From positions 8,096 through 72,095 of IMG/VR virus record IMGVR_UViG_3300037467_001267: a stretch of DNA of 64,000 nt. One strand, written 5' to 3'. Positions 981-58,297 of the stretch are shown piece after piece. Below the pieces are notes generated by a model. It was not told the origin of the DNA, did not search any database, and saw nothing but the letters and a program-made list of their open reading frames with translations. This stretch comes from a virus (Duplodnaviria > Caudoviricetes). The translations under genes were made by a program, and so were the position numbers. The stretch's first letter is position 1; every line of letters starts with the position of its first letter.

Positions 981-1232
981 ATGCTACTAAGTGAGTGGGT
1001 TGCGAGAGCGGAAGGCGTGGTGGCTCGCCTGAAAGAGCTGCCGGGAGACATCGAGGTCATGAAGGTGCCGGGACGCATCGTCCTGGATTACGACGGCACG
1101 ATCCTCGGGAAAATTAACTGCGGAGAAATGGAGCTGGTGATTTATGGCGATGAGACCGGTCAGGCTGGGGCTAGACGAGATGAATCTGTTCAACACCATC
1201 GCGGTGGAGACGGGGGCGAAGTGCAACCGTAA
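981..1232 (+). CDS. Hypothetical protein
   Basis: ORF from ATG 981, in operon order. Confidence 0.55.
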   Translation: MLLSEWVARAEGVVARLKELPGDIEVMKVPGRIVLDYDGTILGKINCGEMELVIYGDETGQAGARRDESVQHHRGGDGGEVQP

Positions 1233-2118
1233 GTGCGGGTTCTGCCCGGTGAGTCTGGGCGGGCGGGATGAAGATGAGTACATGGACCAGGGCACGTTCA
1301 ACAAGATCATAGCCGAACTGGTCTCGCTGAAGTACAAGGGGAGTTTCATCTTCCACCTCTACAACGAGCCCATGAAAGATAAGAGGCTCGTTGACCTGGT
1401 GCGTCAGGCCCGGGAGAACTTGCCCCGGGCGGGGTTGAGATTTAACACCAACGGCGACTACATCAAAGAGCCCTGGGACGTGGCGAAGTATTTTGACGCG
1501 GGCCTGAACCAGATGCTGATCAACGTCTACTCCAACGAGAAGCGGTACCAGCAGCTGGTGGAGATCGTGCGGCAGGTCAAGGTGGCCCACGAGGGTCTGC
1601 ACTACGACGCGGGAGACATGAAGCGTGCCGGGATGAGCGTAGAGGTGCTAAGAAAGTTCGGGTCGGAAGTGTACCAGCTGGGCGGCACCCAGAAGCTGCA
1701 GAACAGGAGCGGCCAGAACACGGATCCCAACCTGGCCGTGTTGGACGAGCCGCTGGAAAAGTACTGCGTGCGGCCGTTCAGGCATATTAACGTGAACTGG
1801 AAGGGCGACGTGGTCTTGTGTTGTAACGACTACTTCGGTCGTGTGACGATCGGGAACGTGCGTGAGCGGAGTTTGGTGGACTTGTGGAATGATCCGCTCC
1901 TGATGCTCTACCGCAAGAAGCTCCAGCGAGAGGATCGGAGAATGCCGCTGTGTGATAAGTGCGATTACGGCGGTGGGGTCATGCCGCACAGTACGCACCC
2001 CATTGCGTGGCCGGGTCGTGCGTGGGCGGAGGATTATCGTGACGTTGACGTCGAAAAGCTGCGGCACATAGCCAAAACGTGCGCGGAGTCGGCGTCCATG
2101 GGGCAGTTAGGGGAATAG
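1180..2118 (+). CDS. Radical SAM protein with SPASM/twitch domain
   Basis: CNRKCGFC (CxxxCxxC), YNEP, FNTNG; C-terminal CVRPF..GDVVLCCND..GNV..SLVDLWN..CDKC. Confidence 0.9.
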   Translation: MNLFNTIAVETGAKCNRKCGFCPVSLGGRDEDEYMDQGTFNKIIAELVSLKYKGSFIFHLYNEPMKDKRLVDLVRQARENLPRAGLRFNTNGDYIKEPWDVAKYFDAGLNQMLINVYSNEKRYQQLVEIVRQVKVAHEGLHYDAGDMKRAGMSVEVLRKFGSEVYQLGGTQKLQNRSGQNTDPNLAVLDEPLEKYCVRPFRHINVNWKGDVVLCCNDYFGRVTIGNVRERSLVDLWNDPLLMLYRKKLQREDRRMPLCDKCDYGGGVMPHSTHPIAWPGRAWAEDYRDVDVEKLRHIAKTCAESASMGQLGE

Positions 2119-3199: not shown

Positions 3200-3489
3200 T
3201 GAGTAACCCAATCGACGAAATCCTGAATGAGTTTCGTGAAGCACGAAAGCAGGGCCGCCAGAAGTATGGCGGTAGCGATCCTGTGGGACACGACCTCAAC
3301 CACCGTCTCAGCGATTGGTTGAGGTTCGTGCGTGACCACCTCGACCGTGCGGGAGGGCCGGATGCTTTCGTGGCCCTGGACCAGCGGGAGCATCTCGTCA
3401 AGGCGGGAGGATTGCTACTCTCTGCGATCTGGGCTCTGGATGTGAACGCAGGACGCATCCCATTACCGGGAGCCGACACCCATGAGTAA
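3199..3489 (+). CDS. MazG-like all-alpha protein (putative NTP pyrophosphatase fold)
   Basis: EARKQGRQKYG..DWLRFV..REHLVKAGGLLLSAI pattern. Confidence 0.5.
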   Translation: MSNPIDEILNEFREARKQGRQKYGGSDPVGHDLNHRLSDWLRFVRDHLDRAGGPDAFVALDQREHLVKAGGLLLSAIWALDVNAGRIPLPGADTHE

Positions 3490-4120
3490 GTTTAACATGA
3501 TGACTTTACCGGCGGCGTACGAGCTGTTGGGCTTGGACATGAAGATCAAGCTCACGCCCGAGGCCCTCAGCAAAGCATATAGAAAAGCCGCGTTGGCCAA
3601 CCACCCGGACACGAAGTTCGGCGAGCTGGCGAAGCGGGAGGCCGCGGAGAAGATGGCTTCGATTAACGACGCCAAAGAGCTACTGGAGAAGCTGGTCAAC
3701 CGGGCACCGAGTTTCTCCGCCAACCCGTTCGGCACGGCGGTGCCTGTGGACGACCATCAGCTGGAAAGCAAGTTCCAGGGCGAGGTGATCGCCGCATGGG
3801 AGGCGATCGGGGCACTAATTCTTAAAGTACACGGCAACGCGTTCCAGAAGGCCGGGTGGCCGGATTTGCAGGTCTACCACGTCAAGTGGACTGGGCACCT
3901 GGAGCTCAAAGTAAACGACAACAAACCGTCCGAGATCCAGCGAATCGTGATACGCGATCTGATGGCCCGCAAGACATGGGCGTTCGTCCTGCGGATGAAG
4001 GCGGGGATCGTGTACCTGGAGAACGACCGCGGGCAGGCGATCAGCCATATGGAGGGATGGAAGAAGATGACCGCCGTCCAGCGGGCTCATTCTATGCTAA
4101 GTCTACTGGGAGTAAAGTAG
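3482..4120 (+). CDS. J-domain (HPD) fused to VRR-NUC nuclease
   Basis: LLGL..LSKAYRKAALANHPD..MASINDAKELL; C-terminal KVHGNAFQKAGWPDL..LELKV..SEIQ. Confidence 0.8.
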   Translation: MSKFNMMTLPAAYELLGLDMKIKLTPEALSKAYRKAALANHPDTKFGELAKREAAEKMASINDAKELLEKLVNRAPSFSANPFGTAVPVDDHQLESKFQGEVIAAWEAIGALILKVHGNAFQKAGWPDLQVYHVKWTGHLELKVNDNKPSEIQRIVIRDLMARKTWAFVLRMKAGIVYLENDRGQAISHMEGWKKMTAVQRAHSMLSLLGVK

Positions 4121-37967: not shown

Positions 37968-39131
37968 ATGTCTACCGTGAACCAGTACCTCGCTAAGCTG
38001 TTCCTGAAGAACGAAGCCATCGAGAAGCACTTCACCGACGCCCAGATCTGCGAGATGATGGCTCAGCGGTTCCCGGGCACGGCCGCGAGCCGCCCCGAGA
38101 AGATTCGCTATCGCCGCCAGCAGTTCAACGAGAACATGGGCCAGTTCGAAGGGATGAACCCGGACAAGGTCGTGTCCTACGAGTACGATGCCGACGGCAA
38201 CCAGGTCCAGCCGGTCAAGACCGTCACGAAGCGGGTGGTGGTCGAGGGCGGAGTTACCGCCGACCAGGTCAAGGAAATTGTGGACGAAGCCATCGCCCAG
38301 CAGGCCGCGAAGGAGAAGCCTGCGATCACGATCACCGTGCCGAGCCGCAACCACTCGATCACGATGCCGAGCGACGACGTTCACGAGAAGTTCCAGAAGG
38401 CACTGATCAAGCTCAAGGCGGGCGTGCCGGTGCTCCTGGTTGGACCTGCTGGCTCGGGCAAGACGACTCTCGCTAAGCAACTCGCTGCCGCCCTGGGGCT
38501 CCAGTTCACGTTTAACTCGATGTCGCTGGGCACCAAAGAGACGGACATCCTGGGCCGCACGCTCCCTGACGAGAAGGGCAACTGGATCTATCGCCCCAGC
38601 CCGTTCGTTAACACGTACCAGAACGGTGGGCTCCACCTGTTTGACGAAATCGACGCCAGCGACCCGAACCTGCTGGTGAGCATTAACGCCGCCATCGCGA
38701 ATAAGCTCCTGAGCATTCCCTTCCGTGACGACCCCACGCCCATCGCGATGCACGAGGATACTCTGATCATCGCTGCGGCGAATACGTACGGGAATGGGGC
38801 CAACCGGATGTACGTCGGTCGCAACCAACTCGATGCGGCGACCCTGAATCGGTTCACCATGGGGACGATCACGATCGACTACGATCGCAAGTTGGAAGCT
38901 CGTCTGACTCCCTCCCGCCTCGGTGGGAACACCGCGATGGCGGAGGTTCTGCTGAACTGGGCCTGGACGACGAGGGAGCGTATCGACCGCAACGCCCTCA
39001 AGCGGATCATGAGCACCCGGAACATCCTCGATGCCGCCGACTGCCTCCATGCGGGCGAGACGATGGACGAGATCAAGACGACGTATTTTGAGGGCTGGTC
39101 GCAGGACGAACTGCGGGCGGTCGCTGCCTAA
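37968..39131 (+). CDS. MoxR/CbbQ/CobS-like AAA+ ATPase
   Basis: GPAGSGKT, LFDEID, AAANTYG..YVGRNQLDAATLNRF. Confidence 0.9.
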   Translation: MSTVNQYLAKLFLKNEAIEKHFTDAQICEMMAQRFPGTAASRPEKIRYRRQQFNENMGQFEGMNPDKVVSYEYDADGNQVQPVKTVTKRVVVEGGVTADQVKEIVDEAIAQQAAKEKPAITITVPSRNHSITMPSDDVHEKFQKALIKLKAGVPVLLVGPAGSGKTTLAKQLAAALGLQFTFNSMSLGTKETDILGRTLPDEKGNWIYRPSPFVNTYQNGGLHLFDEIDASDPNLLVSINAAIANKLLSIPFRDDPTPIAMHEDTLIIAAANTYGNGANRMYVGRNQLDAATLNRFTMGTITIDYDRKLEARLTPSRLGGNTAMAEVLLNWAWTTRERIDRNALKRIMSTRNILDAADCLHAGETMDEIKTTYFEGWSQDELRAVAA

Positions 39132-39142
39132 GAATTTTCTGG

Positions 39143-39171
39143 TAGACTCCCGGGAGTGGTTCGGCTATACT
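39143..39171 (+). promoter_or_regulatory. Sigma70-type promoter overlapped by two CTCCCGGGAG palindromes
   Basis: TAGACT-17-TATACT. Confidence 0.65.
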
Positions 39172-39192
39172 CCCGGGAGATAGGAGATAGGA

Positions 39193-40020
39193 ATGAAACT
39201 GCCCCCGATCAAAACCGATGGACGCATCCGCCGACACGAGTATACGGGCGTGGGCCATGCCGTAGACATCGCGGTGTCCGGCGACAGCCGTACGGAAGCA
39301 GGTCGAAAGATCGGCGACAAGCTCTCCACGATGAGCACGAGCTGGACTGGTTACAAGTCGGCTCGCGATAACCGCGAAGCGGACATCGAAACGCTTGCGA
39401 CGATCCGGCAGATCCGCGACCGCATCGAGCGGCAGCTGGACCTGCCCCAGCAGACCGTTCGCCGTCGCCGGCATGGTCTCGACTCGGGTGCGGAGCTTGA
39501 TCCGATCGCCTGGGTCCAACGTGACCCGTACGGCTGGACGGATACGCTCCGCGAACCGCAGACCAAGCGTGTGATCCGCATCGGAGTGAATCTGGTCCTC
39601 TCCTCGTTCATGGGGCAAAGCTACGTGCTCTATCGCGGGGCGTGCGCCGTGGCTCTGGCGGATATTCTTTCCTCGCAGGGTATCGACGTGGAGTTGGTCG
39701 CCTTTAAAGCATCGAGCGATGCGGACGGCGCAGGTCAGACCGATGTGCAGAGCGTCGTGGTTAAGGCGAGCGATCAGCCGTTAAACCTCGCTGCCTGTGC
39801 GACGTGTTTCTGCTCGCTGAGTTTCGTCCGAACCGTGCTTCTGGCCGGCCAAGCTCGTATGTGCCCGCTGCCTCCCCATTCCTCGATGGGCTCGCCCACG
39901 AATTTGCCGGAGGAGGATCGTAAAGGTTTCGACGTTATCATCGACCAAGACGTACAAACGTACGATGGGGCCGTCACCCGCGTCTTAGAAGAGGTTAGGA
40001 AGGCTTCCGGGCGGGCGTAG
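39193..40020 (+). CDS. vWA/CobT-like partner of the AAA+ ATPase
   Basis: RRRRHGLDSGAELDP..; degenerate MIDAS region; VELVAF; adjacent to MoxR. Confidence 0.65.
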   Translation: MKLPPIKTDGRIRRHEYTGVGHAVDIAVSGDSRTEAGRKIGDKLSTMSTSWTGYKSARDNREADIETLATIRQIRDRIERQLDLPQQTVRRRRHGLDSGAELDPIAWVQRDPYGWTDTLREPQTKRVIRIGVNLVLSSFMGQSYVLYRGACAVALADILSSQGIDVELVAFKASSDADGAGQTDVQSVVVKASDQPLNLAACATCFCSLSFVRTVLLAGQARMCPLPPHSSMGSPTNLPEEDRKGFDVIIDQDVQTYDGAVTRVLEEVRKASGRA

Positions 40021-46045: not shown

Positions 46046-48943
46046 GTGACCAAAGGTAAGACGAGTCTGCCGATCGAACGGATTAACGCTCTGGCGGAGC
46101 TGGAGCGTTGGGATTGGAAGTATGAGCCGCTCGGCAACAACGAAGTCAAGATCTGCTGTCCCGTCCATGAGGACAAGTCCCCGTCGGTCAACCTCGACGT
46201 GGAGCAGAACCTTTGGAAGTGCCACGTATGCCCGGCCCGGGGCGACATCGTCTCGCTGATCGCGGCCATCGCCACCCGAACGTCGGGCAAGCAGATCGAC
46301 CGCTCCACGGTCATCAACGATCTGGGGTCTCGGTACGACCTGGAATCGATCAAGGTGCTCTCCCAGGACGTGGTCGAGAAGCATCACCAGGCCGTCTGGG
46401 AGGCGGGGCCGCTCCTCCAGGCCCTGTACGACCGCGGCGTAACCGACGCCGACATCCGCGAGGCACGGCTGGGGTACTGGGAGGGCCGCATCTCCATCCC
46501 CGTCTACGACGAGCATTGGAACGTCGTGAACATCCGGCGGTATCTCCCCGGGGCTCCCGGCCCCGAGAAGATGCGGAACATGAAGGGGTACGGGCGACCC
46601 GCCCGGATGTACCAGATCGCCGATCTGAAGTACGAGAAGGTCTGGCTATGCGGCGGGGAGTTGAAGGCCCGCGTCGTCAAGCGACTCCTCAACCCGCATG
46701 GGGTCGGGGCCGTGGCCCTGACGGAGGGCGAGGGTAACTGGGAGCATAAATACTCCCAGAAGTTCAAGGACAAAGTCGTCTACATCTGCTACGACATTGA
46801 CGCTGTGGGCTTCCATAACAGCCGCAAGGTCGCGGGGTACATCGCCCGGTTCGCCAAGGCGGTCTTGCTTATCCGGCTGCCGCTCGACCCCGGGAAGTAC
46901 CCCAAGGGCGACGTCAACGACTACGTGGGCCAGGAGCACGCGACGGACGCCGACCTGCTCCGCCTGATGGCGGAGGCGACGGAGTTCATCCCCGACGACC
47001 CGACTACTCCGGAGGACACGTCGAGCGTCCGCAAGGTCAAGCTCGTGGACGCGACCCGTCCGGAGAACGTCGGCCATCGGCTGGAGATGGACGGCACGGT
47101 GAACGCGATGGAGGAGACCCCGTACCTCATCCCGCGAACGATCGGCTGCGCTTGCGACCGCAACCAGCCCGAGTGTACGCGGTGCCCGGTGCTCCCGCAA
47201 GACCCGCACCCCGACACCGGCAAGGTCGTGCTGAAGATCCGCGGCACGTCGATGGGGATGCTGAACATGGTCGGCTCGCCCGAGAAGCTCCAGCGGGAGA
47301 GCATCCGCGAGTCGCTGGGAATCCCGACATGTAAGAGCGTGACGTTCACCGTCCAGGACCACTTCAACGTCTGGGACGTTCGGCTCTCACCGCAGCTGAC
47401 GATCAGCGGGAGCAACGCCGACAACGTCAACATGCCGGCCCTGGTCGTGTCCGAAGAGATCGACCTGAACGTGCCGTACGTCCTCCAGGGCAGGATCTAC
47501 CCGCACCCCAAGAACCAGCAGGCCGTCCTGGTCATCGACGAAGTCAAGCAGGCGGAGGACTCGCTGAATTCCTTCACGCCGACGGCCAGCGAGCTGGAGA
47601 CGCTCAAAGTCTTCCAGCCCGCCGAGTGGACGACCAAGGGGATCAAAGAGAAGCTGGACGACTTCTATGCGGACATCGAGTTCAACGTCACGCGCATCTA
47701 CCACCGGCGGAATCTACACGTCCTCATGGATCTCGTCTACCACTCCGCCCTGTACTTCTACTTTGACGGGCGGCTCCAGAACGGGTGGGTTAACGCTCTC
47801 GTGGCGGGAGACACTTCGCAAGGCAAGAGCGAGGCGACGACGCGCATTATGGGGCACTACGGTCTCGGTGAGCGAGTCGAGTGTAAGAACGCGACTGTCC
47901 CGGGCCTGCTCGGGGGTTTCGAGAACCTTGGTAACAAGATGTTCGTTAAGTGGGGTGCCGTCCCGACCCATGACCGCCGGTTTGTCGTGCTCGAAGAGGT
48001 CAACGGAGCCGCCGTCGAGGTCATCGGCAAGCTCACCGACATGCGAAGCTCCGGCATCGCGGAGCTACAGAAGGTCGGCGGTGTGCGACGGGCTCATGCT
48101 CGTACAAGACAGCTATGGACGGGCAACTCCCGATCGAACCGCCGGGTAAGCCAGTTTAATTTCGGGGTGGAGCTGCTACAGGAGCTCATCGGCTCCGCCC
48201 AGGACGTGCGGCGGTTCGACGTGGCGATGGTCGTGTCTAAGTCGGACGTAGACCCGAAAGAGATCAACAAAGCCCAGGAGGAGCGGCCCCGTGTGGAACA
48301 TAAGTACACTCCTGAGTTGTGTCGCCGCCGCGTGCTTTGGGCTTGGACTCGCAGCCCAGCTCAGGTTGTCTTCGACAAAGAGGCGGAGAGGGCGTGCCTG
48401 GCGGGAGCGGCAGACATGTGTGCGAAATACTCTGAGGAAATCCCCCTGGTGGACAAGGGTACGATGCGGTTTAAGATTGCTCGCCTGGCTGTTGCGTGCG
48501 CGGCCTGTACGTTCTCGACGGGCGACACGACGGAGAGCGTGAGGGTGCGGGAGTGCCACGTCGAGTTCGTGTCGAAATGGCTCGACAGAATCTACTCCGG
48601 TTCGACCCTAGGCTACCACGACTTCTCTCGGGCCGTACAGTTCGCCCAACAGCTCAAAGATCCGGAGATCGTGGAGTCCCACATCCGTACGCAGAAGTTC
48701 CCGCGGGACTTCGTGGACAACCTCCTCCACTCGAAAGAGATCACCCTCAACGACATTATGGACTGGTGCGAGGTCGACAAGGACGCCGCCCAGAAGGTCT
48801 TGTCGGTTCTGGTGCGTAAGAATGCGATTTACCGCGATGGTCGCTTCTACGCCAAGACGCCGACATTCATCTCCCTACTCAAACACCTCCAGGCCAAGGG
48901 CGACCTGCCGGAGAACAACATCGCCAAGGACAAGTTCGCATGA
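46046..48943 (+). CDS. Primase (CHC2 Zn finger plus TOPRIM) fused to MCM-like AAA+ helicase
   Basis: CCPVHED..CHVC; YICYDIDAVG; CACD..CTRC; AGDTSQGKS; VVLEEVN; RRFDV. Confidence 0.8.
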   Translation: MTKGKTSLPIERINALAELERWDWKYEPLGNNEVKICCPVHEDKSPSVNLDVEQNLWKCHVCPARGDIVSLIAAIATRTSGKQIDRSTVINDLGSRYDLESIKVLSQDVVEKHHQAVWEAGPLLQALYDRGVTDADIREARLGYWEGRISIPVYDEHWNVVNIRRYLPGAPGPEKMRNMKGYGRPARMYQIADLKYEKVWLCGGELKARVVKRLLNPHGVGAVALTEGEGNWEHKYSQKFKDKVVYICYDIDAVGFHNSRKVAGYIARFAKAVLLIRLPLDPGKYPKGDVNDYVGQEHATDADLLRLMAEATEFIPDDPTTPEDTSSVRKVKLVDATRPENVGHRLEMDGTVNAMEETPYLIPRTIGCACDRNQPECTRCPVLPQDPHPDTGKVVLKIRGTSMGMLNMVGSPEKLQRESIRESLGIPTCKSVTFTVQDHFNVWDVRLSPQLTISGSNADNVNMPALVVSEEIDLNVPYVLQGRIYPHPKNQQAVLVIDEVKQAEDSLNSFTPTASELETLKVFQPAEWTTKGIKEKLDDFYADIEFNVTRIYHRRNLHVLMDLVYHSALYFYFDGRLQNGWVNALVAGDTSQGKSEATTRIMGHYGLGERVECKNATVPGLLGGFENLGNKMFVKWGAVPTHDRRFVVLEEVNGAAVEVIGKLTDMRSSGIAELQKVGGVRRAHARTRQLWTGNSRSNRRVSQFNFGVELLQELIGSAQDVRRFDVAMVVSKSDVDPKEINKAQEERPRVEHKYTPELCRRRVLWAWTRSPAQVVFDKEAERACLAGAADMCAKYSEEIPLVDKGTMRFKIARLAVACAACTFSTGDTTESVRVRECHVEFVSKWLDRIYSGSTLGYHDFSRAVQFAQQLKDPEIVESHIRTQKFPRDFVDNLLHSKEITLNDIMDWCEVDKDAAQKVLSVLVRKNAIYRDGRFYAKTPTFISLLKHLQAKGDLPENNIAKDKFA

Positions 48944-49575
48944 TACACGATCTGGGATTGATGGTGCGGGCGTTCCATGAGAAATATGGATTCCCGCTGG
49001 ACCGCAAGCTCTCCGACGAGCGTACGCAGAGCGACATGGCGCAAGGAACCTTCCAGACCTCGCAGGCTCTACGCGAGTTCGGTAAGCTCCTCGTGGAGCA
49101 GGCGGAAGCCTGGCGGGTGCCGGCCACCGCGATGCAGCATGACGGAGACGGGCGGCTGTACTCGATTATGATGATGGCGGAAGAGTTCGGAGAGTACGCC
49201 ATCGCCATGGCGGAAAAGAACGAACTCAAGGCTGCGCACGAGCTGGCGGACTTAGCCTACACGGTCTACGGTCGTGGCGAGCAGTACAACGTACCGCTTA
49301 CTGCCGTGTTCGTGGAGCTCCATAAGTCAAACATGACGAAAGAGAAGGTGGGTGAGCGGATGCGGACTCGCGACCAGCCGAACACGTACCTGCCGCCGGA
49401 CATCCGTGCCGCGGTCGTGGCGGGGCGGATCGCCCGGCGGCGTAATGGTATGACCGTCGCGGGATACACCGACGTCCAGCCCCGCGAGAAGGACACGCTG
49501 CGGTTGGAGTGTACGTGTGGTGCATTGAAAGACCCTGGTCATGCCCCGAACTGCCCGCGTAATGGGCTCGATTAA
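48940..49575 (+). CDS. MazG/PRA-PH-like nucleotide pyrophosphohydrolase
   Basis: EEFGE..HELADLAY..VELHKSNMTK. Confidence 0.85.
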   Translation: MIHDLGLMVRAFHEKYGFPLDRKLSDERTQSDMAQGTFQTSQALREFGKLLVEQAEAWRVPATAMQHDGDGRLYSIMMMAEEFGEYAIAMAEKNELKAAHELADLAYTVYGRGEQYNVPLTAVFVELHKSNMTKEKVGERMRTRDQPNTYLPPDIRAAVVAGRIARRRNGMTVAGYTDVQPREKDTLRLECTCGALKDPGHAPNCPRNGLD

Positions 49576-49586
49576 TAGGAGATAGC

Positions 49587-50582
49587 ATGAACACCTTCGA
49601 CACGTTAGACGAACTCTGGCTCGACGCCGCCCACAAGCTCTTGGGCGAGGGCGAGGGCATCGCCAGCCGCGACGGCGGGGTGGCCCGCGAAGTCCTGGGC
49701 TACTCAGCGAGGCTCGCTGATCCGCGTGCGTGCTTTCTGTTCAACCCCGTACGGGCCATCAGCCCCAGCTACGCCGCGGCGGAGCTGCTCTGGTACCTGT
49801 CGGGCACGAGCAATACGACCGGCCTCCAGGAGTACGCCCCGCAGTACAAGCGGTTCACGGAGGACGGCGTCCACGCGTACGGTGCCTACGGGCATCGGAT
49901 CTGGGCCACCCACGAAGTGCTCGCGACCGGCATCGACTTTCAGGGCGACCATTTGCGGCCGCTCTTCACCGACCCCTGGCGACCGGCCGGCCAGCTGGAG
50001 ATGTTGATGGCCCTCCTGTCGAAGCTCCCCGAGACCCGGCAGGCGGTCGTCTCGCTGTGGAGGCCGCACGACATCACTTGCGCCCTCCAGCAGAACAAGA
50101 AGGATCTGCCCTGTACGCTCTCCCTGCAGTTCCTACTCCGCAACGGGAAGCTCAACCTGATCGTCACGATGCGGAGCAACGACATCTGGCTGGGCCTGCC
50201 GTATGACGCCTGGTCGTGGTGCTCGATCCAGCAGCTCGTCGCCACGGCCCTGGGCGTGGAACTCGGCTGGTACCAGCACCAGGCCGGGTCGATGCACGTC
50301 TACGAGCGGAACTACGAGAAGTTCCAGCAGGCGGCGTGGGTGGACAACTTCTCGACGGGGTCGATCGAGTACACCCCATTCTACCGCTGGAACAGCGAGA
50401 TCCGCACCGCGTTGAACGTCGAGCAGGTCATCCGTGAGCGGAAGTCCCTATGTATGCTGGACCGTCCGTTCAAACAGACCCTGCTCGGCCAGACGTGTGT
50501 GATGGCGGCAACGAAATGGGACAAGCTGGCTTGGGAGCATATCGAGAACAAGACCCTTTCGAGGTACTGCGAATGTTTATAA
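49587..50582 (+). CDS. Thymidylate-synthase-family enzyme, predicted dCMP-specific (hydroxy)methylase
   Basis: LPCT catalytic Cys; RSNDIWLGLPYD (Asp at the ThyA Asn177 position); GSMHVY. Confidence 0.8.
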   Translation: MNTFDTLDELWLDAAHKLLGEGEGIASRDGGVAREVLGYSARLADPRACFLFNPVRAISPSYAAAELLWYLSGTSNTTGLQEYAPQYKRFTEDGVHAYGAYGHRIWATHEVLATGIDFQGDHLRPLFTDPWRPAGQLEMLMALLSKLPETRQAVVSLWRPHDITCALQQNKKDLPCTLSLQFLLRNGKLNLIVTMRSNDIWLGLPYDAWSWCSIQQLVATALGVELGWYQHQAGSMHVYERNYEKFQQAAWVDNFSTGSIEYTPFYRWNSEIRTALNVEQVIRERKSLCMLDRPFKQTLLGQTCVMAATKWDKLAWEHIENKTLSRYCECL

Positions 50583-51109
50583 TCGAAGGTGCCGACCATC
50601 TCGGCAAGACGCACGCGGCGAAGCGTATGGTGGAGCTGGCCGAACCCCGGTATCCCGTGCGGTACCAGCATATGTCGAGGCAGAACGCCGCGTTCAACTA
50701 CGGCAGCGACTACCTCGACCTGCTGTCGAAGTACGCCGTCCAGGATCGCTTCCATCTGGGTGCCCTCGTCTACCACGAGCCCGGCACGCTCACGACGGAC
50801 AACCTGTTGACCGTCAAGCGGTGGCTCAAGGATGTGGGCTCGATGGTCGTGATCTTCTACGCCAGCGACGAGCGGGCTTACGAGAAGTCGCTGCGGGAGG
50901 AAGGCAAGGCTGAGATGTTCTCGGTCGAGAAGATCCTGGAGGCCAACGAGAAGTTCCGCAAGCTTACCTATGAGGGAGTCTGCGACTTCTCCTACGACGT
51001 GACTATGTCGGGCTGGGTGTCGGACGGGCAGCTCAAGACGTGGCTCGGCTGGTGGTACTCGCGGATGGACGGATGTGCGAACACGCGGCGGAACTACATG
51101 GCGAGGTAA
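50573..51109 (+). CDS. dNMP kinase (thymidylate-kinase-like)
   Basis: IIEGADHLGKT; QDRFHLGALVY. Confidence 0.85.
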   Translation: MFIIEGADHLGKTHAAKRMVELAEPRYPVRYQHMSRQNAAFNYGSDYLDLLSKYAVQDRFHLGALVYHEPGTLTTDNLLTVKRWLKDVGSMVVIFYASDERAYEKSLREEGKAEMFSVEKILEANEKFRKLTYEGVCDFSYDVTMSGWVSDGQLKTWLGWWYSRMDGCANTRRNYMAR

Positions 51110-51110
51110 C

Positions 51111-51605
51111 ATGCACTTCGGAACAGCACAAGCTATGGAACGGCGATTCCGCGACCTGATGGGTAACCTCCATCGCTGGGCGGAGTCGATGGCGTGCGGT
51201 TGTAAGCGGAAGCAAGTCGGGTTCGCCCTCGTGGCGATCGGCCCCGACGGACATTTCCGCGAGATCTGCCGGGCCCATAACGGCCCGTCGGCTGCGGGGC
51301 ACGAGTGCTCCAACGTCGTGGGCGGCTGCGGATGCGGACACAGCGAGCCCCGCCTCATGATGGCGGCGATGCGTGCGGGGTACACCGCCCCGCAATGGAT
51401 CGACAAGCTCGTCGTCGTCGGCACGTACTCGCCCTGCTCGTTCTGTGCGAACGCGATCGTGGACGCGAAGATCGCACACGTCTGCGTGTACGACATCCTG
51501 ACCGAGCACGACACGCGGGGCGTTGAGATTCTCAATCGGGGATTGCCTAAGGGTGCGGTCAGCATCGCTGACCTGAAGTATGAGGAGATCGAGTCATGGG
51601 CGTAG
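51111..51605 (+). CDS. dCMP deaminase-like protein
   Basis: CKRKQVG..HNG..HSE..SPCSFCANAI. Confidence 0.85.
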   Translation: MHFGTAQAMERRFRDLMGNLHRWAESMACGCKRKQVGFALVAIGPDGHFREICRAHNGPSAAGHECSNVVGGCGCGHSEPRLMMAAMRAGYTAPQWIDKLVVVGTYSPCSFCANAIVDAKIAHVCVYDILTEHDTRGVEILNRGLPKGAVSIADLKYEEIESWA

Positions 51606-52015
51606 AGAGACCGCAAGTCAACCTGGAGATGGACCGCGTCGTGTGCGGGATCCACGGCGAGCCGTTCCGTGCGAAGTGGCCGGAAGGATACCCGACCTTC
51701 GCCGTCGAAGTCTTCCACGCCGTCGCTCAGACGGGCGTGTTCTCGGATGTGGGTGAGTTCAAAATCAACCGCATGCTGAAGACCAAGCCGCTCTGCTGCC
51801 GGCTGAAGGAAATCGACCCGGCCAAGCTCGTGGAGCTGTACGCCCGAACGCCGATGGCGGTGACGGCGGTGTGCTCGCGGTGCGCCCTCCTCAAGCCGGG
51901 TGCCCCGTACAAGTACAACGACCCGCGATCGAACTACGGGCACCTCACCCTGACGCACCTGTGCTTCGAGTGCGTCGTGTACCGGCTGGTCGCGGCCCCG
52001 GGGCGGAGTAACTGA
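51596..52015 (+). CDS. Cys-rich hypothetical protein
   Basis: CGIH, CCR, CSRC, CFEC. Confidence 0.6.
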   Translation: MGVERPQVNLEMDRVVCGIHGEPFRAKWPEGYPTFAVEVFHAVAQTGVFSDVGEFKINRMLKTKPLCCRLKEIDPAKLVELYARTPMAVTAVCSRCALLKPGAPYKYNDPRSNYGHLTLTHLCFECVVYRLVAAPGRSN

Positions 52016-52278
52016 TGTGGATCACCAAGTCGCCCCTCGACTGTCCGTACTGCGGCCACGTCCATGCCGGGCTCAAGCAGGCGTCGTCGGCGTCCGGCTC
52101 GCTGGTCGAGGGTGCGACGGTGATCTGTCCGAGCTGTGCAGGCATCGTCCGATGGGACGGGCAGAAGCTCGCCCTACTCACCAAAGAGCAGAAGGCGGCG
52201 ATGGACTTCCATCCCCAGCGAGCGGAGATGGAAGCGTACGTCGCGGCGATCGTGAAGAAGAGAGGTTTGTACGGATGA
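52015..52278 (+). CDS. Zinc-ribbon protein
   Basis: CPYC..CPSC. Confidence 0.6.
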   Translation: MWITKSPLDCPYCGHVHAGLKQASSASGSLVEGATVICPSCAGIVRWDGQKLALLTKEQKAAMDFHPQRAEMEAYVAAIVKKRGLYG

Positions 52279-54332
52279 TTAAGCTACCCAACGGGGCGAT
52301 GCTGCTCGAGCACGCCCACGAACTGCCCGACTGGAGGGACTGCCGTGACCTGTTCCTGGACATCGAGTCCAAGCGCATCTACAAGGCCCACATCATCGAG
52401 GACGACGACGGGGAGGAGACGGACCACAGCGGTCTCTACCCGTTTGGCGGCGATCGTATCGCGGGCATTGCGGCAGTACCAGACGACCACCCCACGCCCG
52501 TCTACATCGCCGTCCGCCACACGCCGATGTTCTCCCCGAACATCCCCGAGGAGAATGTGCGGCGGTGGCTCGACGACCACGTAGGCATGCGGGCTAAGCC
52601 CAAGCGGTGGAGCAACCATAACATCCTCATCGACGTTGCGTTCGTGGAGCACGAGGGCGTCACGGTCAACGTGGACCTGGACGACACGCTCACCCGGGCC
52701 AAGATGTACGACTCGGACAGGATAGGGCACGGCCTGAAGTCCGTCGTGCCTGCCTGGGGTGGGCCACCGATGAGTGAAGAGCATCGCATCAAGGCTTACT
52801 TAAAGTCGATCAAGTCCAAGTCGTACGCGGACGTGCCCTGCGACCTCATGGGTCACTACGCGACGGACGACGTTCTGGGCAACCGCTGGCTCACCCGGTT
52901 TCTCGACGCTAAGATGCCCGACATGCGGAACATCCCCCGCAACGAGCAACTCCTCACCCCCGTCCTGTACGACATGGAGCGGGAAGGTCTGCTGATCAAC
53001 CGCAAGGAATGTAAGCGGGCTCTCGCCGAAGGCTACCGCGACCTGTTGTTGCTGGGCACCGAGATCGGCATGATCGCCGGGCGGGAGTTCACCAACTCCG
53101 CCGCGTGCCTGTACGACATCCTGACGAACCGCTTCGGCCTGCCCGTCCTAGTCACCAAATGGGAGAAGGACGAAGAGACCAAGAAGTACGTCGACACCGG
53201 GCGGGCCACGTACTCGAAAGACGCCCTCGGCATCTACGCACGCCATCCGCTGGTCCTGGCGGACGAGAACCTGGTCGAGCTGGTGGACCTGATCCTGAAG
53301 TACCGCAAGGTACAGCAGATGGTGAGTTTGTTTTACGAGCCGTTCCTGAAGCTCGCTGACGAACGGGAGTACATCCATCCGACGTACAACCAGCTGGTCC
53401 GGACGGGCCGCATGAGTTGTAAGCGACCCAACGCCCAACAGCAGACCAAGAAGTCCAAGCGGCTGATCAAGCCAGGCCCGGGGAGATGCTTTATCTCCTG
53501 CGACTATTCGCAGATCGAGTTTAGACTTATAGTCCACTACATCGAGGACGTGAACGCCATTAGAGCTTATCAGGAAGATCCCTGGACGGACTTCCACCAG
53601 TGGGTCGCCGACATGATCGGCATCGGCCGCAAGCCAGCGAAGACGCTCAACTTCGGCATGGGCTACGGGGCGGGCCAAAAGAAGGTCACCAGCGAGCTGT
53701 CGAAGAACGAAGACATCATCGCTGACGTCGGTGAAGAGATCAACGCGATGGTGTTGGAAGGTAAGCTCGACCCGTCGAAGCGCAGCGAAATGTTTAACAT
53801 CTTGTGCGAGGAGCGGGCGAGGGCGGCGTACAACACGTACCACGAGACCCTGCCCGGCATCAAGAAGACTTCTCGCGAGGCCGGAGCCTTCGCCAAGAGC
53901 CACGGCTACGTGCGGAACCTGCTGGGCCGCATCCGGCATCTCCCGCCCGAGCGGGCCCATATCGCCTTCAACACCGTCGTCCAGGGCTCCGCGATGGACT
54001 TCATCAAAGAGGCTATGATTAGGTTGGCCCCCCGCTACAACAAGCGGATGCGCGACTGGGACATCAAGATCGTAGCCAACGTCCATGACGAGGTGCTCTT
54101 CAACGCCCCGGTCGAGCTGATGCTGAACGAAGAGGTTCACAGCTACATCCTGGAGAACCTGGAGATGACGAGCGTGCCCCTCCTGGTGCCGTTGAAGTCG
54201 GGGCTCGGCGTGAGCGATCGCGATTGGGCGGAGGCCAGCGGCGACGAAGCCCGCTGGGCGGACGGCACGGTGTGCAAACCAAAGGACTACCGTGGAGACG
54301 ACAGACCTATCGCCGGGCGACTCGTTGGCTAA
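52275..54332 (+). CDS. polA: Family A DNA polymerase with 3'-5' exonuclease domain
   Basis: LDIES exonuclease motif; motif A CDYSQIEFR; motif B KTLNFGMGYG (Phe at the 762-equivalent position); motif C VHDEV. Confidence 0.95.
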   Translation: MIKLPNGAMLLEHAHELPDWRDCRDLFLDIESKRIYKAHIIEDDDGEETDHSGLYPFGGDRIAGIAAVPDDHPTPVYIAVRHTPMFSPNIPEENVRRWLDDHVGMRAKPKRWSNHNILIDVAFVEHEGVTVNVDLDDTLTRAKMYDSDRIGHGLKSVVPAWGGPPMSEEHRIKAYLKSIKSKSYADVPCDLMGHYATDDVLGNRWLTRFLDAKMPDMRNIPRNEQLLTPVLYDMEREGLLINRKECKRALAEGYRDLLLLGTEIGMIAGREFTNSAACLYDILTNRFGLPVLVTKWEKDEETKKYVDTGRATYSKDALGIYARHPLVLADENLVELVDLILKYRKVQQMVSLFYEPFLKLADEREYIHPTYNQLVRTGRMSCKRPNAQQQTKKSKRLIKPGPGRCFISCDYSQIEFRLIVHYIEDVNAIRAYQEDPWTDFHQWVADMIGIGRKPAKTLNFGMGYGAGQKKVTSELSKNEDIIADVGEEINAMVLEGKLDPSKRSEMFNILCEERARAAYNTYHETLPGIKKTSREAGAFAKSHGYVRNLLGRIRHLPPERAHIAFNTVVQGSAMDFIKEAMIRLAPRYNKRMRDWDIKIVANVHDEVLFNAPVELMLNEEVHSYILENLEMTSVPLLVPLKSGLGVSDRDWAEASGDEARWADGTVCKPKDYRGDDRPIAGRLVG

Positions 54333-57760: not shown

Positions 57761-58297
57761 GTGAGCAACTACCCCGACTGGCTACCCTGGAACGCGTTCC
57801 CGCCCCGCGTCGTGGCGTTCCTCCAGAATTGCTACGTCCGCGAGACCGACGTGCGATCCTGGGCCCGCATGATGTCCGGACCACGACGGTGGCCGATCAT
57901 CGCCCGGGGCCTCTTCGCCGGATGTAAGACGGGGCAGGTACTAAAGCGGTGCGGGCTGCCCTCGATGCCGTGGGTCATCTGGGAGAACGCGAGTACGGGA
58001 ATCGGGACGCGAGCCCACCACCGCTTCGCCGCAGACCCCGACCATATGGCGGACGTGATTAATCGGGCCCAGCCCGACCTTGTGGTTGTGCTCGGGGAGG
58101 TAGCCCAGCGAGGGATCGAGCAGCTGGACGTGACTGACTGCGAAGTGCTTTACGGGCCGCACCCCGCCGCCCGCATGAACGTGCGGGACTCGCTGGAGCG
58201 CATCGCCCAGAGAATCGAGGAGCTTTATGAAGACGTTATTGGCCCGGCCCGGCCCGGGAGCCGCGGCGACCCCCGCCCAACTCGTCGAGGAGCTTAG
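57761..58297 (+). CDS. Uracil-DNA glycosylase superfamily protein
   Basis: AFLQN..QPDLVVVLGEVA..GPHPAAR. Confidence 0.65.
   Translation: MSNYPDWLPWNAFPPRVVAFLQNCYVRETDVRSWARMMSGPRRWPIIARGLFAGCKTGQVLKRCGLPSMPWVIWENASTGIGTRAHHRFAADPDHMADVINRAQPDLVVVLGEVAQRGIEQLDVTDCEVLYGPHPAARMNVRDSLERIAQRIEELYEDVIGPARPGSRGDPRPTRRGA

Follow-up and report, generated by a model that had tools for sequence, protein, structure and literature searches.

The phage genome in IMG/VR record IMGVR_UViG_3300037467_001267 carries a four-gene cassette that probably exchanges deoxycytidine triphosphate (dCTP) for 5-hydroxymethyl-dCTP before replication, with 5-hydroxymethylcytosine (hmC, 5hmC) replacing cytosine in the DNA and being glycosylated afterwards. 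The record comprises 72,095 bp of an uncultivated tailed phage and has a completeness of 100% according to CheckV. We analyzed bases 8096-72095 of it, a stretch of 64,000 nt that is called the window in the following. The cassette is located at window positions 48940-51605 and encodes, in this order, a MazG/PRA-PH-type pyrophosphatase, a thymidylate synthase (TS) homolog, a P-loop kinase, and a deoxycytidine monophosphate (dCMP) deaminase. All four open reading frames (ORFs) are on the + strand, which carries nearly all ORFs passing a codon-position GC filter. An earlier note, made from the sequence alone, had named these four genes and their order and had suggested a route from dCTP to dCMP, a C5-modified dCMP, and its triphosphate. 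The ORFs lay where it had placed them, on the + strand, and the identities it had given held. The route was supported as well, and could be narrowed to hydroxymethylation by Asp143, Asp169, and Asp177/Thr147 of the TS homolog (ThyA numbering), by the kinase fold, and by the family of the deaminase.

The TS homolog contains the motif RSNDIWLGLPYD. Its residues were read from a MAFFT alignment with Escherichia coli ThyA, T4 gp42, SPO1 gp29, the M6-like MP1412 enzyme, and further family members. We considered the alignment valid since it reproduced the published T4 numbering (C148, D179, E60, S169, R123, H216, and Y218). With the ThyA residues in brackets, the homolog has R28 (R21), E66 (E58), Y101 (Y94), R151 (R126'), D173 (L143), C176 (C146), T177 (H147), M195 (Q165), S197 (S167), N198 (C168), D199 (D169), and D207 (N177), and in addition H237 and Y239. 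The catalytic and sugar-binding set C176, E66, Y101, H237, and Y239 aligned with ThyA Cys146, Glu58, Tyr94, His207, and Tyr209 and was invariant in 37 relatives, and the same was true for D173, T177, D199, and D207. Six positions vary among the characterized enzymes (143, 147, 165, 168, 169, and 177), and at all of them the homolog had the residue of T4 gp42 (D, T, M, N, D, and D, respectively). D207 aligned with T4 D179 and with MilA Asp186, D173 with T4 D145. The Asp at the position of ThyA Asn177, to which the earlier note had pointed, was thus seen in HMMER alignments to solved TS structures and MilA, in the MAFFT alignment, and as an invariant residue of the 37 family members. All relatives examined had Asp at position 169. 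A pattern and tblastn scan of IMG/VR led to 80 related viral loci that were fetched, and the same motifs were present in nearly all of them.

Published work allows these residues to be interpreted. N177D stands for dCMP specificity, an acidic residue at position 143 (L143D/E) for a hydroxymethyl product, and D169N for the recently found flavin-dependent 5-hydroxy-dCMP synthases; the acidic residue at 143 admits water, while methylating enzymes carry a bulky hydrophobic residue there (PMC13326640). Asp177 confers dCMP specificity and by itself does not settle the choice between methyl and hydroxymethyl (PMC8670742). Ser167 together with Arg126' is found in deoxyribose users, while the cytidine monophosphate (CMP) enzyme MilA has Ala176 and Lys133' instead (PMC5175136). 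Because Asp143, Asp169, Asp177, and the Ser167/Arg126' pair fit these rules, the TS homolog is predicted to be a 5-hydroxymethyl-dCMP (5hm-dCMP) synthase.

Other assignments of the TS homolog, and another origin of 5hmC, were rejected. A canonical ThyA would have Leu143, His147, and Asn177, where we found D173, T177, and D207. The folate-closing C-terminal tail of ThyA was missing and was replaced by an unrelated, long helical extension of about 80 residues, which is common to hydroxymethylases of the SPO1/M6 type. These enzymes use deoxyuridine monophosphate (dUMP) and have Asn at the positions of D207 and T177: SPO1 gp29 and the MP1412 enzyme showed Asn at 147, 165, and 177 in the alignment, and the PCN and ...GAN motifs revealed Asn at 147 and 177 also in RHph_I65, Ab18, CN2, RaNi, and phage Simon. 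A dUMP hydroxymethylase was rejected on these grounds, and a 5-hydroxy-dCMP synthase of the RB69 gp48 type because position 169 is Asp199 and D169N is absent. A TET-based origin of 5hmC was dismissed as well, since TET/JBP and C5-methyltransferase genes were missing from the complete 72,095-bp genome. ThyX and trimeric dUTPase genes were also absent. The TS homolog was the only TS-fold gene of the genome, and the earlier observation that the window has no other ThyA or ThyX thus holds beyond the window.

The cassette type as such is already known and is not a new pathway, since the MetaGPA study tied a TS with Asp177, a PRA-PH protein, and a dCMP deaminase to cytosine-modified DNA; the three co-occurred specifically in contigs with all cytosines modified (PMC8670742).

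The metal-binding motif EExxE...ExxD of MazG proteins was present in the pyrophosphatase as AEEFGE...HELAD, and its best solved relative was the MazG-like NTP pyrophosphohydrolase DR2231 (E 1e-7). In 39 of the 80 fetched loci, a MazG homolog was encoded no more than 10 kb from the TS gene. The kinase likely starts at 50573 (MFIIEGADHLGKT), overlapping the TS stop codon, and its orthologs start at the same place. It had no significant match in Pfam and none in the PDB (phmmer), and it did not match the 5-hmdU DNA kinase (5-HMUDK) family PF18748. An AlphaFold2 model built with 29 orthologs reached a predicted local distance difference test score (pLDDT) of 95.8. The best matching folds were the SPbeta prophage kinase YorR/BSU20280 (template modeling score 0.70, E 1e-6), followed by thymidylate kinases and deoxynucleoside kinases (dNK); no T4 gp1 structure was among the fold matches listed. 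Look-alikes in the language-model-based ESM Atlas were viral Thymidylate_kin/dNK clusters. The kinase gene adjoined the TS gene in 38 loci, and deoxynucleoside monophosphate (dNMP) kinase of the thymidylate-kinase/dNK type is a fair name for its product, as judged from the model. The deaminase ORF opens with a GTG at 51075, but translation probably begins with the ATG at 51111. The protein has the zinc and catalytic motif HSE...PCSFC, preceded by an invariant extra Cys cluster, C-x6-CGC. The single sequence gave nothing significant against the PDB (phmmer). A profile of 17 orthologs matched the dCMP deaminases of cyanophage S-TIM5, Streptococcus mutans, and T4 (4p9c, 2hvv, and 1vq2; E 2.7e-17 to 5.3e-15), and the protein is a true member of the dCMP deaminase family (ComEB/T4 Cd family).

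A second set of candidate modification genes is located at the start of the genome, upstream of the window (Table 1). It includes a TAGT-family glycosyltransferase gene (PF20691, E 2.9e-8). The statement of the earlier note that no glucosyltransferase is visible is therefore true for the window, while a homolog is present just outside of it. All 40 sampled TAGT homologs with a cultured host pointed to T-even-type hmC phages, in which the gene is annotated as beta-glucosyl-HMC-alpha-glucosyltransferase, and so did the organism tally of 414 matching records, which was dominated by Escherichia, Klebsiella, Shigella, and Yersinia. The TAGT gene is followed by a gene for a class II-like ribonucleotide reductase (RNR) and, inside the window, by a second radical-SAM/SPASM gene. 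This is the radical-SAM enzyme that the earlier note had mentioned; its paralog, enzyme 1, is encoded outside the window. Enzyme 2 is a possible tailoring enzyme for DNA modification. In a related contig (G002:C1:17820-19247, contig of locus L009), a single in-frame TAA interrupts the ortholog of enzyme 1 (E 1.4e-64), which abuts an ORF with a match to the 5-HMUDK family.

The same region encodes an HMUDK_hel protein (PF18723). Its structural model was all-helical with a pLDDT of 87 and had no P-loop. The best fold found by VIA-align was the 5-PmdU glycinyltransferase PaMx11 gp46 (Pplase2; Z 9.7 over 214 residues, a modest Z for a helical protein), followed by helix-hairpin-helix DNA glycosylases. 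Foldseek gave no significant match for the model. The counterpart in phage M6, gp55, is separate from the kinase gp54 and is dispensable for the in vitro reaction (PMC8989533). The model points to a Pplase1-type base-flipping enzyme, or a partner of one, and not to a kinase, and the Pfam name "5-hmdU DNA kinase, helical domain" is misleading for this protein. Near its C-terminus we also noticed an invariant C-E-x2-K-Y-x-R motif, which is reminiscent of the catalytic Cys of Pplase2. A search of the complete genome for the 5-hmdU DNA kinase itself (PF18748) found nothing at E <= 1, and the amino-acid:DNA transferase (ADDT, PF18724) had no match in the genome either.

We infer the following route, with all of its substrates and products, what the deaminase does in it, and how far the replacement goes. 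The MazG-type pyrophosphatase is proposed to act as a dCTPase, and probably also as a dUTPase, yielding the monophosphates; this would remove the canonical competitor and supply the substrate dCMP. Cys176 of the TS-fold enzyme would attack C6 of dCMP, and the methylene group would be taken from methylenetetrahydrofolate. With Asp173 in place of the water-excluding Leu143, the exocyclic methylene would be hydrated to give 5hm-dCMP. The P-loop kinase is proposed to convert 5hm-dCMP to 5hm-dCDP, and a host NDP kinase would form the triphosphate. The deaminase would convert surplus dCMP to dUMP for the host ThyA, as T4 Cd does, which would balance dTTP and lower dC. The PolA encoded next to the cassette would incorporate 5hm-dC. 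After replication, the TAGT-type glycosyltransferase probably glycosylates 5hmC, with possible further tailoring by the HMUDK_hel/Pplase1 protein and the radical-SAM/SPASM enzymes.

The gene arrangement was conserved among relatives. At least 573 IMG/VR viral stretches encode a TS enzyme of the Asp type. At least 10 distinct viral contigs among the relatives had the order MazG-TS-P-loop-deaminase-PolA, and about 15 more had MazG-TS-P-loop-PolA; the arrangement of the cassette is not due to chance. One version, which is that of the window, reads SNF2 helicase ... primase-helicase-MazG-TS-P-loop-deaminase-PolA. In a second version, MazG-P-loop-deaminase-PolA, the TS gene lies a few kb away and directly beside the HMUDK_hel and TAGT genes. 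Loci L016, L017, L019, L021, L023, L026, and L027 showed this as a tight row TS-HMUDK_hel-TAGT-(RNR), and such a tight TS-HMUDK_hel-TAGT module argues for a functional link. The closest relative of the cassette in GenBank was that of Manatee Spring virus (MW202657.1), with a TS 42% identical and the same synteny. Genes for a HaeIII-type C5 methylase and a further methyltransferase are present in this virus as well, which would be odd if all of its cytosines were replaced. At the DNA level, a near-identity search of GenBank phages gave no match to the cassette.

Co-occurrence was counted in 50 genomes with an Asp-type TS, the contigs having been picked by similarity and the lineages being non-independent. 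A single TS gene was present in 49 of them, a deaminase gene in 40, HMUDK_hel in 18, and TAGT in 15, and 14 of these 15 also had HMUDK_hel. A homolog of radical-SAM/SPASM enzyme 1 occurred in 13 genomes, often beside TAGT and TS. As 80% of all Asp-type TS genes are accompanied by a deaminase, its co-occurrence with HMUDK-type genes does not discriminate.

Several observations weigh against the inferred route. Five relatives (G001, G038, G044, G045, and G049; loci L008, L054, L072, L076, and L082) combine a single TS with a PF18748 5-HMUDK gene (E down to 2e-25) and a PF18724 ADDT gene. Both motifs confirmed Asp177/Thr147 in G001, G038, G044, and G045 (locus L103 for the latter). G049 has a confirmed Asp177, and its residue at 147 could not be read cleanly. 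These phages either apply thymidine hypermodification chemistry to 5hmC, or deaminate hm-dCMP to hm-dUMP. Among cultured phages, HMUDK_hel occurs only in those that hypermodify thymidine on the basis of 5-hydroxymethyluracil (hmU), and its conserved positions showed no switch between partners of Asp-type and Asn-type TS. The genome has no phage thymidylate synthase that could use the deaminase product. The pyrophosphatase showed no similarity to T4 gp56 in BLASTP, so its dCTPase role rests on context, and its relative DR2231 is a dUTP-specific enzyme. The tree also belongs here. The earlier note had suggested a phylogeny with T4 gp42, SPO1 gp29, XP12, and MilA; our quick maximum-likelihood search, which had long branches, covered the first two of these. 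The TS of the window grouped with uncultivated sequences, and T4 gp42 formed a very long outside branch. The dUMP enzymes of SPO1, M6, and RHph_I65 formed a well-supported clade that was nested, with weak support, among the uncultivated sequences. Because the identity to gp42 is only about 25% and the weakly supported position in the tree is near the dUMP hydroxymethylases, the TS lineage appears to be distinct from that of T4, and the dCMP signature would be convergent or ancient, not orthologous.

A rival reading is a cytosine-first route to hmU, in line with the earlier note, which had named deamination of the modified dCMP as an alternative. The TS would make 5hm-dCMP, the deaminase would convert it to 5hm-dUMP, and the kinase would phosphorylate the latter. 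Either thymine only or both thymine and cytosine would be replaced, and hmU would be the target of the HMUDK_hel-type protein, as in M6-like phages. dCMP deaminases accept 5-substituted dCMPs, and deamination of hm-dCMP would reconcile the cytosine-side evidence (TS signature, MetaGPA, TAGT) with the thymine-side evidence (HMUDK_hel, 5-HMUDK/ADDT relatives). The cultured HMUDK_hel homologs are all from hmU or T-hypermodifying phages whose TS is of the Asn type, HMUDK_hel has the same conserved residues whichever TS type is present, and the phage has no dTMP synthase of its own that would otherwise use dUMP. The 40 genomes with a deaminase include all four relatives with clear 5-HMUDK and ADDT matches (in G049 the deaminase match is marginal, E 0.007). 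Nevertheless, we consider this route unlikely. T4 also has a dCMP deaminase in addition to gp42, and no special role is needed for the enzyme. The sampled cultured TAGT homologs are from hmC phages, the genome lacks both the 5-hmdU DNA kinase and ADDT, and a dCTPase would be harmful if dC must remain in the DNA. MetaGPA enriches only cytosine-protected DNA, and the trio was found exactly there (PMC8670742).

Two further alternatives concern the TS homolog itself. It could methylate dCMP, as the enzyme reported from Xanthomonas phage XP12 does, with 5-methylcytosine replacing cytosine, an option that the earlier note had listed, since Asp177 determines the use of dCMP and not the choice between methyl and hydroxymethyl (PMC8670742). 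This is very improbable: position 143 is Asp, as in all hydroxymethylases aligned (T4 gp42, SPO1 gp29, the M6-like enzyme, and MilA), the ThyA tail is replaced by the extension of the SPO1/M6 type, and the co-occurring glycosyltransferase needs a hydroxyl acceptor. A role in ribonucleotide or small-molecule metabolism, like that of the CMP hydroxymethylases MilA and BcmA, would fit the finding that among the 127 solved TS-family sequences matched by the homolog MilA was the best (E 1.3e-26, compared to only 5.6e-18 for the best TS). We regard such a role outside DNA modification as the least probable of all, since Ala176 and Lys133' of MilA correspond to Ser197 and Arg151, the deoxyribose pair of TS and the T4 dCMP hydroxymethylase (PMC5175136), and since the gene is located within a phage replication module, among genes for a dNTP pyrophosphatase, a protein with dNMP kinase fold, a dCMP deaminase, and PolA.

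The preferred reading, replacement of cytosine by hmC, leaves room for an unusual end product. The earlier note had expected an undescribed base partly because it saw no glucosyltransferase. This argument falls with the TAGT gene, but HMUDK_hel/Pplase1, the two radical-SAM/SPASM enzymes, and the methyltransferase-like ORF still permit one, and a tailored, undescribed derivative of hmC is plausible. Tentatively, and with more doubt than confidence, we suggest that 5hmC is fed into an undescribed kinase-free route of Pplase1/HMUDK_hel, TAGT, and radical-SAM/SPASM enzymes leading to a new cytosine derivative, and that in the 5-HMUDK/ADDT sister phages phosphorylation followed by amino-acid transfer, so far known from thymidine only, takes place on cytosine.

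T4 provides the closest functional model, with the same four activities (gp56 dCTPase/dUTPase, gp42, gp1 dNMP kinase, and Cd) as those proposed here and the same logic. The TS homolog equals gp42 at positions 143, 146, 147, 165, 167, 168, 169, and 177, the deaminase and T4 Cd are members of one family, and the TAGT-family glycosyltransferase elsewhere in the genome is a likeness to T2 and T6. In contrast to T4, where the genes are scattered, they are contiguous here, and the parts are non-orthologous or very distant: the TS homolog has the C-terminal extension of the SPO1/M6 type, the pyrophosphatase is unlike gp56, and the best fold matches of the kinase are SPbeta YorR and thymidylate kinases, with no gp1 among those listed. 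Furthermore, this phage has no Td and no alpha- or beta-glucosyltransferase genes, and it has a 72-kb genome, a PolA, and no detected sheath gene.

The MetaGPA sets share with the window a PF00303 protein with Asp177, PF01503, and PF00383 together on a phage contig, and also a residue other than His at position 147 in the modified set. In the validated case the partner was a 5hmC carbamoyltransferase, whereas TAGT, HMUDK_hel, and radical-SAM/SPASM genes and no carbamoyltransferase were seen here (Yang et al. 2021, PMC8670742). The MetaGPA supplement files searched did not contain PF18723, PF20691, or the radical-SAM accessions, so that HMUDK_hel and TAGT have no independent tie to contigs with modified cytosines.

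SPO1 and phages of the M6/PaMx11/ViI type have a comparable nucleotide pool layout of NTPase or nucleotidase, TS-fold hydroxymethylase, dNMP kinase, and dCMP deaminase (PMC8989533). The C-terminal TS extension, Asp143, Asn168, and Asp169 are shared, and in those phages as in this one an HMUDK_hel/Pplase1 gene is close to the TS gene. The TS enzymes of these phages differ by Asn at 177 and 147 (and at 165 where aligned) and by their use of dUMP. Those phages also encode the 5-HMUDK P-loop kinase and ADDT, which are both absent here, and an HD-domain nucleotidase in place of MazG. The 5-hydroxy-dCMP synthases of RB69, DLP3, and RL38JI resemble the TS homolog in fold, Asp177, and the acidic residue at 143, with a glycosylated cytosine as end product as proposed here, but their diagnostic D169N is absent here and Asp199 is found instead (PMC13326640).

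The surroundings of the cassette are those of a replication module (Table 1). The stop codon of the primase-helicase gene overlaps the start codon of the MazG gene, and this gene was syntenic in 37 related loci. PolA homologs were encoded 3' of the cassette in 55 related loci. The earlier note had placed the cassette just upstream of PolA, which is nearly right, as two small Cys-rich ORFs intervene. For the first of them (139 aa) no Pfam or PHROG match and no homolog in the 80 related loci was found; the second (87 aa) showed coding-like third-position GC and likewise had no homolog in these loci.

Table 1. Features of the cassette and its surroundings (window positions unless marked as genome positions)
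Feature	Position	Strand	Evidence or remark
Radical-SAM/SPASM enzyme 1, DUF7352, HMUDK_hel, weakly methyltransferase-like ORF, further ORF, TAGT glycosyltransferase	genome 949-5977		upstream of window
HMUDK_hel (aGPT-Pplase1)	genome 2240-3196		PF18723 E 3.6e-42; about 5 kb upstream of window start
Radical-SAM/SPASM enzyme 2	1144..2118	+	PF13186 SPASM E 1.8e-14; PF04055 E 9e-9
Primase-helicase, 965 aa	46046..48943	+	CHC2 zinc finger PF01807 E 1.4e-7; directly 5' of MazG gene
MazG/PRA-PH-type all-alpha NTP pyrophosphatase	48940..49575	+	PF01503 E 6.8e-12; phrog_671 nucleotide pyrophosphohydrolase
TS-fold enzyme with dCMP hydroxymethylase signature	49587..50582	+	PF00303 E 5.3e-26, above gathering score
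P-loop nucleotide (dNMP) kinase, predicted	50573..51109	+	Walker A GADHLGKT; fold model
dCMP deaminase, predicted, zinc-dependent, mononucleotide type	51111..51605	+	PF00383 E 6.9e-6; phrog_174
Cys-rich ORF, 139 aa	51596..52015	+	third-position GC high as in neighbors
Cys-rich ORF, 87 aa, possible zinc ribbon	52015..52278	+	sub-threshold weak Zn_ribbon_3 match
Family A DNA polymerase PolA	52275..54332	+	ORF; probable start MIKLPNG at nt 52275

The structural genes found were those for terminase, portal, major head protein, and tape measure, and no tail-sheath family was detected among the 10 structural ORFs scanned, which is consistent with the siphophage proposed earlier. A 178-aa ORF at window positions 57761-58297 showed a weak, sub-threshold match to the uracil-DNA-glycosylase superfamily (PF03167, E 9.5e-4); such a protein could matter to a phage that raises dUMP pools via its deaminase. 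An AAA_5 (MoxR/dynein-type) ATPase gene followed by a gene for a DUF7192 protein is located at 37968-40020, upstream of the SNF2 helicase gene, and the ATPase recurs in a few relatives. A DnaJ (J-domain) protein is encoded at 3482-4120, between the second radical-SAM gene and the terminase region, and has homologs in several related contigs.

Full substitution with hmC makes a genome resistant to many restriction and CRISPR systems and a target of type IV defenses. The known hmC producers are mostly T-even-type myophages; the same engineering of the nucleotide pool would now be found in a large uncultivated group of PolA phages. Their enzymes appear to be related more closely to the hmU synthases than to T4 gp42 and would provide a natural series for the switch of pyrimidine specificity by one or two residues. 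Since the Asp-type TS pairs with genes so far taken as markers of thymidine modification, these genes should not be read as a sign of modified thymidine without checking the TS residue; in the sister phages a full thymidine toolkit sits beside a cytosine-type synthase. The more interesting question is the fate of hmC in a phage that combines a glycosyltransferase of the hmC world, a Pplase1 of the hmU world, and radical-SAM/SPASM enzymes without a DNA kinase. The group added to the modified base afterwards may be new, and the final base could add to the DNA modifications and enzymes available for epigenetic sequencing tools.

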